Origin: a virus
Taxonomy: Duplodnaviria; Heunggongvirae; Uroviricota; Caudoviricetes
Reading direction: 5' to 3' (one strand)
Length of the DNA: 64,000 bases
IMG/VR virus record: IMGVR_UViG_2541047715_000004
Numbering within the stretch: the stretch's first letter is position 1; each line of letters starts with the position of its first letter. This document shows, in pieces, positions 28,003-29,396 of this stretch. The notes beneath the pieces are model-generated. The model was not told the origin of the DNA. It was given only the letters and a program-made list of their open reading frames with translations, and made no database searches. The position numbers were made by a program, and so were the translations under genes.

Positions 28003-28218
28003 TCAGCTTAGAGCAACGACATTTGCTGCTGCTGGGCCTTTAGCCCCATTCTCGATAGAGAATTCGACCTGCTGGCCTTCTTCCAAAGTGCGGAAATTAT
28101 TACTCTGAATTGCCGAAAAATGTACAAAAACATCTTTACTGCCATCAGCAGGAGAAATAAAGCCAAAGCCTTTATCAGAGTTAAACCATTTTACTAAACC
28201 AGTCATTTTATTAGACAT
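28003..28218 (-). CDS. cspA: cold-shock protein, CspA family
   Basis: [23 protein letters not shown]...VFVHFSAI: near-identical to CspA-family RNP1/RNP2 motifs; start set at MSNK. Confidence 0.9.
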
Positions 28219-28547
28219 AGATATTACCTTCTTAATTTTGTGAGCCACATAGTGCGGCGAGAATTTGATCTGTATAGATTGGGACTTACTTAGGCACTTA
28301 AGGAGGAGACTCACGAAGAAGGGAAATCAGAAGATAACACTGAACTGAGACTGCTTTACTAAAACTGCTTACATAAGGTCTGTCTTGCAAACCAACGATG
28401 CTATTAACGCATACCCCTTCTTTTCATGCAACCTTTATTTTTCAAAGATAACTAATTTTTGTCACCATTGGTTTAGTAAACGTTAACGAACCAGACGATG
28501 CCAGACACCTTTACAGAGAACAGATGCCCGCCAATTGGCGGGCATCA

Positions 28548-29111
28548 TTATGCGCATTTCGCAATATCTTTGCGGCGTTTAATCAGTTTCTCCGCAATTT
28601 GCTCTATTTCGTTGAAATCTTTCGAGACGCTGTTTCGAAGCGCCAGATTCCATTTACTCAAAGTTCGGGCATTTTGGACAATTTGATCGCCCTCTTTAAG
28701 TCGTCCGTTATTCATGAGCCATTCAGCCACATCAGCCCAATCCCAGAGAGGAGACTGGCCTTTTATGCGTTGTACAGGGCAAGGGAAGTCGCCGCTTCCG
28801 CGCTTACCGTCTTTGAGCAACGCCACTGCCTGGCGAGACAGGTCTGTCAGTTCCGCGATATCGCTTAAGCCCACAAGAGCCGAGTCGACGGATTCAACAA
28901 TTGCACCGATACCGGCTGATTCAATATTGTCGACCGCAGATGCGATAGCTGCATCAAGTGATTGTGCTTCGCGGTCAAATTCTACATAGACGGAGTTTCC
29001 ATATGCGCAAATTAGCGCATCGTCACAGCCGTTTTGGTACAGCGCGTCTTCCAGTCCTTCCGTCTCATACGATACGCCTGAGAGCGTCAGAGTGAAGTTA
29101 TAAAGCGCCAT
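28548..29111 (-). CDS. protein with C-terminal AlpA-like HTH DNA-binding domain
   Basis: C-terminal DLSRQAVALLKDGKRGSGDFPCPVQRIKGQSPLWDWADVAEWL matches the AlpA / phage-regulator HTH pattern; start set at MALYNF. Confidence 0.4.
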   Translation of the reverse strand: MALYNFTLTLSGVSYETEGLEDALYQNGCDDALICAYGNSVYVEFDREAQSLDAAIASAVDNIESAGIGAIVESVDSALVGLSDIAELTDLSRQAVALLKDGKRGSGDFPCPVQRIKGQSPLWDWADVAEWLMNNGRLKEGDQIVQNARTLSKWNLALRNSVSKDFNEIEQIAEKLIKRRKDIAKCA

Positions 29112-29171
29112 AGTTTTCCTTTGAAGATAGTTGGACAGTTTCTGCAAAAGGCGGCTAATGCCGCCTTGAAA

Positions 29172-29396
29172 TCATTTACAACGATCAACCATTCGTTTGA
29201 TCTGTTTGGCATGGTTTTCGGGATTACCCGGAGTCGACCATACGCTCATTTGGTGAGTTTTGTGTTCACCTTCTGGATTACCGCATCGCAGTCTGCAAAA
29301 ACAATGTGCAGCACCACCAGCTGCTACCCAGATCCAGCCTTTACTTAATGCATAGTCAATGGCTGCTTGAATATGCTTATTCGGATGTTGCTTCAT
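29172..29396 (-). CDS. small Cys/His-rich hypothetical protein
   Basis: 74 aa ORF directly upstream of the AlpA-like gene on the same strand. Confidence 0.35.
   Translation of the reverse strand: MKQHPNKHIQAAIDYALSKGWIWVAAGGAAHCFCRLRCGNPEGEHKTHQMSVWSTPGNPENHAKQIKRMVDRCK

Follow-up and report, generated by a model that had tools for sequence, protein, structure and literature searches.

The 64,000-nucleotide (nt) stretch of Caudoviricetes DNA analysed here (IMG/VR record IMGVR_UViG_2541047715_000004; hereafter the window) carries three genes at 28003-29396 that run on the minus strand inside a plus-strand backbone. We found that this apparent island breaks up into two accessory ('moron') modules that are independent of each other and occupy a variable slot of a phage-plasmid. 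One is a cold-shock gene (csp), the other a pair of genes encoding a basic protein of 74 amino acids (aa) and a partner of 187 aa. We regard it as fairly probable that the pair is an autoregulated, toxin-first, type II toxin-antitoxin (TA)-like cassette for addiction or defence, with csp as a separate module. The source element is an SSU5-type E. coli phage-plasmid of ~108 kb. Escherichia phage Cyrano, which is the phage-plasmid pLF82 of E. coli LF82, shares 99.7% identity with the region 27700-29650, and many ~110-kb E. coli plasmids match this region at 100%. An original prediction, made from the letters of the window alone, had located all three genes correctly and had taken them for a single island of acquired cargo. 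The cargo part holds, given that the content of the slot varies among SSU5-like phage-plasmids, while the single island dissolves into two modules.

A conserved two-gene cassette

The pair comprises the following elements:

29172-29396, minus strand: gene of the 74-aa basic Cys/His-rich protein, putative toxin, topology alpha-beta-beta-(h)-beta-alpha
Residues C38, H45, H48 and C73 of the 74-aa protein: putative Zn ligands, proposed from the family pattern
28548-29111, minus strand: gene of the 187-aa partner, putative antitoxin and autorepressor
29442..29414, minus strand: predicted pair promoter TTGACA-17-TAGAAT (promoter scan, 11/12)
29428-29443, minus strand: predicted perfect palindromic operator GTTGACATCTGTCAAC, over the -35 element of the pair promoter
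29148-29167, minus strand: intercistronic G/C-rich hairpin AAGGCGGC-AUUA-GCCGCCUU, then UU (RNA fold), in the 60-nt spacer
28523-28546, minus strand: hairpin terminator directly 3' of the 187-aa gene (inverted repeat; 10-bp stem with 8 G-C pairs)

The two genes lie next to each other on the same strand, 60 nt apart and with the small gene first, and are preceded by the ribosome-binding sites GGAGG (74-aa gene) and AAGGA (187-aa gene). With 4 Cys and 6 His the small protein is Cys/His-rich as had been described, whereas the partner, anticipated as a minus-strand gene of 188 aa, counts 187 aa from its ATG (MALYNF...). Neither protein matched a Pfam or NCBIfam family, and searches of PDB sequences with the profiles of the pair returned nothing relevant. 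Among the PHROGs the small protein belongs to phrog_5923 (function not assigned) and the partner to phrog_2620 ('excisionase and transcriptional regulator'). Publicly the proteins are named 'hypothetical protein' or, for the partner at NCBI, 'DNA-binding protein'. Both components of the PADLOC candidate system PDC-M06 were matched (PDC-M06A 1.2e-19, PDC-M06B 1.3e-32). A literature search for PDC-M06 found no paper, and one on pHCM2 and toxin-antitoxin returned general HicAB papers only.

An exhaustive profile search gave 703 representative clusters (formed at 50% identity) at E <= 1e-3 and 262 at E <= 1e-10. Relatives were scanned with one genome per species, which provided 303 small-protein relatives, and locus counts were taken from the best 80. 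In 78 of these 80 loci the small gene is directly followed, in the same orientation, by a gene matching the partner N-domain; in one exception (L074) only ~250 bp of contig are left after the small gene. The loci span Proteobacteria, Bacteroidota, Planctomycetota, Verrucomicrobiota and Latescibacterota. A helix-turn-helix (HTH) domain is present in the partners of Proteobacteria and Bacteroidota. In Planctomycetota, Verrucomicrobiota, Latescibacterota and Cardiobacteriaceae the partner consists of the N-domain alone (81-113 aa), and the helical tail is mostly limited to Enterobacterales. Since partners devoid of an HTH are still paired with the small protein, the N-domain is its obligate partner and the HTH an add-on. 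No conserved third open reading frame (ORF), and hence no hidden third component, followed the N-domain-only partners of Planctomycetota.

The cassette is patchily distributed over diverse mobile elements and occurs in very different surroundings: SSU5-type phage-plasmids, the type IV secretion region of a Yersiniaceae integrative and conjugative element, an integrase island, a P2-like prophage of Histophilus somni (beside Phd/YoeB) and, in Providencia, stand-alone chromosomal copies. At least 1000 contigs carry the exact pair proteins, and Shigella sonnei records include exact or near-identical copies.

A predicted private operator and an intercistronic hairpin

We counted the palindrome GTTGAC-N4-GTCAAC, allowing at most 2 substitutions, in the 120 nt that precede the small gene. 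It was found at 57 of the 63 loci with an HTH-containing partner and at none of the 15 loci without HTH, the background being 29 in 6530 sequence windows. At up to one mismatch it occurs once in the window and is absent from the remaining 44 kb of Cyrano. A single self-operator that is found across loci together with the HTH is the hallmark of a dedicated autorepressor as opposed to a global phage regulator. From these sequence data we infer that the HTH of the partner binds the palindrome and represses its own operon.

Of the homologous loci, 25 have a spacer of 40 nt or longer. In 20 of them we found a hairpin equivalent to that in the 60-nt spacer, with stem sequences that differ among loci, against 1.1 +/- 1.0 in shuffled sequences, which served as control since the hairpins had been selected by foldability. 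As the loci are related, this comparison is not a strict probability. Clades without the hairpin have 4-nt gene overlaps. Possibly the hairpin terminates a fraction of the transcripts or attenuates them, and thereby determines in which ratio the two products are made. In the LF82 lysogen the small gene (CYRAN_51) is transcribed at 30x and the partner gene (CYRAN_50) at 14x the prophage background (PMC9928086). This difference is compatible with partial termination but no proof of it.

Properties of the two proteins

The structural model of the small protein (predicted local distance difference test, pLDDT, of 88) follows the order helix-strand-strand-(short helix)-strand-helix. Within the family H4 and P56 are invariant, and H31, W21, C38, T55 and C73 nearly so. 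H31, which is located at the beta1-beta2 junction at the start of strand 2, is present in 39 of 39 and in 73 of 75 sequences. The Cys and His residues vary in a compensating manner: most family members combine C38 with a single Cys in the loop (position 48) and with C73-x-H at the C-terminus, and others lack the C-terminal His but have two or three Cys in the loop. In the subfamily of the window the loop provides H45 and H48, and the chain ends directly after C73. Such a pattern across the family suggests a tetrahedral zinc site that would tie the beta2-beta3 insertion to the C-terminus. The protein has a net charge of +6 and an isoelectric point (pI) of 9.5, with a family mean charge of +5.

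Foldseek of the small-protein model against the PDB gave no significant match and no HicA. The HicA models (PF07927 / COG1724) did not match at E <= 1 the protein itself, its 39 close or its 75 distant relatives, and alignment to E. coli HicA with hhalign yielded a probability of 8.7%. As Foldseek, HMMER and hhalign thus give no link to HicA, we use the term 'HicA-like fold' tentatively. A weak sub-threshold match to Pfam RuBisCO_small was seen in 29 of 39 family members, and one Shewanella record of the family bears the name 'ribulose bisphosphate carboxylase small subunit', almost certainly an annotation artefact.

For the partner (pLDDT 81) the model consists of three parts. Residues 1-77/78 form a beta-alpha-beta-beta-alpha-beta ferredoxin-like N-domain (pLDDT >90). 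A winged-HTH region follows at ~79-137, with the HTH at 82-101, a loop at 100-121 and a Trp-rich helix at 125-134, and the tail is a helical hairpin of residues 143-186. The N-domain is strongly acidic (charge -13, pI 4.05; family mean -9.1), and its charge is thus complementary to that of the small protein. A HicB fold of the N-domain was ruled out on the model, which is ferredoxin-like and not of the partial RNase H type; hhalign against E. coli HicB gave a probability of 0.2%.

The earlier assignment of an AlpA-type HTH to the C-terminus of the partner holds only approximately. The HTH resides in the middle of the protein, and its similarity to AlpA is weak. Pfam Phage_AlpA (PF05930) did not match the partner of the window and reached sub-threshold scores in 9 of 37 relatives (best E 0.025). 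With hhalign E. coli AlpA was aligned at E 0.0014 and a probability of 18%, and phrog_66 matched at E 2e-4.

The most conserved stretch of the partner is the loop 100-121 (~28749-28814), KDGxRGxGDFPCPxQRIKGQSPLW, which is also its only part modelled with a pLDDT below 50. These residues may become ordered only on DNA or on the small protein.

A proposed toxin-antitoxin-like mode of action and its alternatives

Within the TA-like reading the small basic protein would be a zinc-stabilised, nucleic-acid-targeting toxin, conceivably an RNase, of HicA-like (double-stranded RNA-binding domain-like) topology, in which strand 2 begins with the near-invariant His. Binding and neutralisation of this toxin would fall to the partner, through its acidic ferredoxin-like N-domain. 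The winged HTH would bind GTTGACA-N2-TGTCAAC over the -35 element and repress the operon, and the intercistronic hairpin may adjust how much of each product is made. Stabilisation of the phage-plasmid (addiction) and/or abortive-infection defence would be the probable advantage. A regulatory or addiction-type pair had been suspected before, and comparative evidence now argues for it, namely the conserved cassette, the private palindromic operator, the basic and acidic partners and the match to PDC-M06.

Several points weigh against the TA-like reading. The PF07927 scans of the 39 + 75 family members, hhalign and the PDB searches did not connect the pair to HicA or HicB by sequence. The partner has a ferredoxin-like N-domain in place of the partial RNase H fold of HicB, and PDC-M06 is a predicted candidate system only. 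In addition, the N-domain residues D22, C29, D31 and R47 are strongly conserved, which could be a sign of an activity of its own. The best-supported reading is a pair that would work in a hicAB-like manner, yet is neither HicA by sequence nor HicB by fold.

The main rival is a non-toxic pair, in which an AlpA-like transcription factor and a small zinc-binding co-regulator would act on genes of the phage-plasmid (lysogeny, excision, replication) or of the host. This would fit the PHROG label of the 187-aa family, the weak AlpA similarity and NCBI name of the partner, and the replication and recombination genes that the pair adjoins. We nonetheless consider it unlikely, because the only copy of the operator in the ~108-kb element is the one at the promoter of the pair itself, because partners without HTH in several phyla are still paired with the small protein, and because the cassette also exists stand-alone on chromosomes. 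The cassette is furthermore found in unrelated mobile elements without an adjacent integrase, and ~60% of the plasmids with the uvsY-like backbone marker do not have the 187-aa gene.

The record of phage Cyrano annotates the pair as HicA/HicB. That it is such a bona fide TA system is quite improbable: no scanned member matched Pfam HicA_toxin, the hhalign probabilities are low (8.7% for HicA, 0.2% for HicB), Foldseek retrieved no HicA, and the beta2-beta3 insertion with its Cys/His ligands has no counterpart in the published HicA descriptions that we compared.

The csp module

The csp module comprises the following elements:

28003-28218, minus strand: csp, 71-aa (MSNKMTG...) CspA-family cold-shock protein of the CspB/G/I-like group
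28219-28396, minus strand: csp 5'-untranslated region (5'-UTR), ~178 nt, cspA-type thermoregulator including the cold-box region (RF01766 and alignment)
28403-28465, minus strand: putative cspA-type promoter with -10 GTTAAT (28408..28403), -35 TTGCAT (28431..28426) and an A/T-rich UP-like stretch upstream
27882-27924, minus strand: stable hairpin ~80 nt past the csp stop, without U-run (inverted repeat; RNA fold z = -3.8)

The identity of csp as a CspA-like gene with a long leader was confirmed. Its translation contains the motifs RNP1 (KGFGFI) and RNP2 (VFVHF), matches Pfam CSD (PF00313) with 115.1 bits (cut-off 27, E 1.3e-33) and is 72% identical to CspA of E. coli K-12. The NCBIfam CspA subfamily cut-off of 130 is passed at 136.9, and the CspG equivalog cut-off of 144 is missed by 0.6 bit (143.4; query without the initial Met). 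The leader belongs to a full match to Rfam RF01766 at 27978-28396 (model positions 1-428), which scores 185.7 bits against a gathering score of 78. Aligning the gene with K-12 cspA and the csp of Klebsiella pJN2-26 revealed conservation of the A/T-rich upstream stretch, the -35 TTGCAT and the -10 (G/C)TTAAT, as well as of the cold-box region and the Shine-Dalgarno context. By this resemblance, 28403-28465 would function as promoter. The E. coli cspA terminator is not conserved at the csp of the window in the alignment with K-12 cspA. The hairpin at 27882-27924 is possibly a 3' stabiliser or weak terminator, and the only clear terminator-like site 3' of csp is the hairpin at 27706-27727. Taken together, csp would be a self-contained cold-shock gene with a cspA-type promoter, a thermosensing 5'-UTR and an RNA chaperone as product, for which induction would be expected at low temperature. 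The module as such is ordinary, already known biology. The gene was left unannotated in the Cyrano record, and the csp of Klebsiella phage pJN2-26 (locus L004, 2216-2431) is mislabelled 'putative portal protein'.

The strong hairpin at 28523-28546 between csp and the pair makes csp its own transcription unit. A palindromic core CCCGCC-N4-GGCGGG is near-identical (88%) at 27709-27724, in the dnaE terminator, and at 28527-28542, in the terminator of the 187-aa gene.

A variable slot with independent modules

Relatives are homologous up to 27665-27709 and again from 29609-29652 on. The left edge and the content of the slot are as follows:

27706-27727: G+C-rich, bidirectional hairpin after dnaE, terminator-like site and left edge of the slot
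Escherichia phage PhiR41_1: ~160 bp only, slot empty
SSU5: DUF7740-like gene and a diverged pair, no csp
Klebsiella pJN2-26: DUF7740-like gene and csp, no pair
ST13-OXA48phi12.3: two unrelated genes
Enterobacter phage-plasmids: pair and a 214-aa gene without assigned function
Y. pestis pMT1-like contig: pair

The island is hence not a constant feature of this position in related elements, in line with acquired cargo. The partner of SSU5 is 67.7% identical in aa sequence to that of the window. The uvsY backbone marker was found in 861 PLSDB plasmids. The 187-aa gene is present in 347 PLSDB plasmids, the csp module in 158 when at least 80% coverage is required, and the full three-gene arrangement at >=99% identity in 63. 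Base composition was uninformative. The GC content of the 187-aa gene (0.495) equals about that of the backbone (~0.49). Lower values were obtained only for csp (0.404) and for the 74-aa gene (0.449), and neither GC nor GC at third codon positions (GC3) clearly identifies the pair as foreign. Meaningful att-like direct or inverted repeats flanking the modules were not found, such that no insertion mechanism is marked. A DUF7740-like gene of 141-147 aa follows dnaE in the SSU5, Klebsiella and Enterobacter relatives (e.g. L002 1922-2347); a search of the window for a remnant of it (SSU5_053) detected none.

In other loci csp and the pair are rarely neighbours, with csp near the pair in 1 of 80. 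In this locus (L044, 6001-7290), which belongs to a metagenome-assembled genome (MAG) of Alteromonadaceae, csp is found ~300 bp 3' of the pair on the same strand. Being the sole case among the 80, the linkage is probably due to chance. That the three genes form one functional unit, with Csp for example as target, cofactor or antidote of the pair, is highly improbable: it would fit the adjacent and co-oriented csp and pair in the 63 near-identical E. coli plasmids and the unrelated MAG locus, but a strong terminator and a separate cspA-type promoter keep csp and pair apart, relatives have csp alone or the pair alone in the same slot, and csp is absent nearby in 79 of the 80 other loci.

Genomic neighbourhood

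The flanks agree with the earlier description, with dnaE and its hairpin on one side and the uvsY-like/gp32-like operon on the other:

24193-27699, plus strand: dnaE (DNA polymerase III alpha)
29651-30082, plus strand: uvsY-like gene, first in the plus-strand operon
From 30200, plus strand: gp32-like single-stranded DNA-binding protein (SSB) gene, after the uvsY-like gene

CobT/AAA-like genes are located 5' of dnaE, and a 5'-3' exonuclease and an intein-containing RecA are encoded beyond the SSB gene. The plus-strand character of the backbone is also evident, as 43 of the window's ORFs with 150 aa or more are on the plus strand and 8 on the minus strand. The RecA gene (32502-34841) has a 779-aa product with the intein inside, and for a near-identical Enterobacter homologue Pfam places Intein_splicing and LAGLIDADG_3 within RecA_N. 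While dnaE is intact in the window, in Enterobacter SSU5-like phage-plasmids (locus L093, 10053-14305) it is split in two by a NUMOD4/HNH_3 homing-endonuclease gene, giving a PHP/DNA_pol3_alpha part followed by an HHH_6 part.

Significance and comparison with known systems

The pair family is abundant in clinically relevant plasmids (the 187-aa gene in 347 of PLSDB, including Y. pestis pMT1) and has no Pfam family. To date its members are labelled HicAB or defence candidate, or else 'hypothetical' or 'DNA-binding protein'. Should the cassette prove to be a TA module or to act in abortive infection, it would help SSU5-type phage-plasmids to persist in clinical Enterobacteriaceae and provide a new antitoxin fold for HicA-like toxins. 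Sites open to direct testing are the predicted operator and the intercistronic hairpin in the DNA, and the putative Zn ligands and candidate catalytic His in the small protein. More tentatively, and short of what we would call probable, the pair may found a distinct, widespread family, with members in Y. pestis pMT1 and in phage-plasmids of E. coli, Shigella and Enterobacter, and represent a convergent re-invention of hicAB. It would combine a zinc-stabilised HicA-fold nuclease, an acidic ferredoxin-like antitoxin unrelated to HicB and repression by an AlpA-like winged HTH at a GTTGAC-N4-GTCAAC operator.

For csp the closest parallels are the csp morons of lambdoid phages, with which the csp region including the leader shares 71-77% DNA identity and whose records annotate cspB. 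Prophage-borne cspA paralogues, such as cspB and cspI of the lambdoid prophage Tritos, likewise consist of a CspA-family gene with a cspA-type leader carried as moron by a temperate phage. Both Tritos genes are expressed in the LF82 lysogen (PMC9928086). Unlike them, the csp of the window belongs to an SSU5-type phage-plasmid, where it occupies a replication-gene slot, and it lacks a conserved counterpart of the E. coli cspA terminator.

Compared to AlpA/excisionase regulators, residues 10-68 of the 70-residue E. coli AlpA align to residues 80-137 of the partner, including the W..(A/E)..WL motif. In contrast to these regulators, the match is sub-threshold, the HTH is embedded in a three-domain protein, no integrase is associated, and the partner is predicted to regulate its own promoter only.

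PDC systems are candidates that were predicted from members lying within BREX, DISARM or type I restriction-modification (RM) loci ('guilt by embedding'; Payne et al., bioRxiv 10.1101/2024.01.29.577857). The pair has the same two-gene arrangement as PDC-M06, for which both the A and the B model were matched, but in contrast to the embedded systems the cassette of the window is located in a phage-plasmid replication and recombination region outside any defence system.

The gene order and the DNA-binding-domain logic of HicAB classes 1 and 3 (Gerdes 2024, PMC10865869) have their parallel in the pair. As in HicAB, the small gene comes first and encodes a basic protein in the range of 50-100 aa, for which the model predicts an alpha-beta-beta-beta-alpha order with a conserved His at the beta1-beta2 junction. 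In HicA of B. pseudomallei His24 of the beta1-beta2 loop is functionally required (PMC3969222), and H31 of the small protein, going by the order of the secondary-structure elements, has a similar position. As in HicB-type systems, the partner contains a putative DNA-binding domain and a palindromic operator is predicted at the promoter, and like HicAB the pair is found on plasmids and prophages. Its intercistronic G/C hairpin recalls the IncI2 hicAB operon, where an internal terminator of this kind raises the toxin:antitoxin ratio (PMC11878559). Unlike in HicB proteins with HTH or ribbon-helix-helix (RHH) domains, the HTH of the partner resembles the AlpA/excisionase type, and unlike in HicA, a probable Cys/His zinc site of the small protein links the beta2-beta3 loop to the C-terminus.

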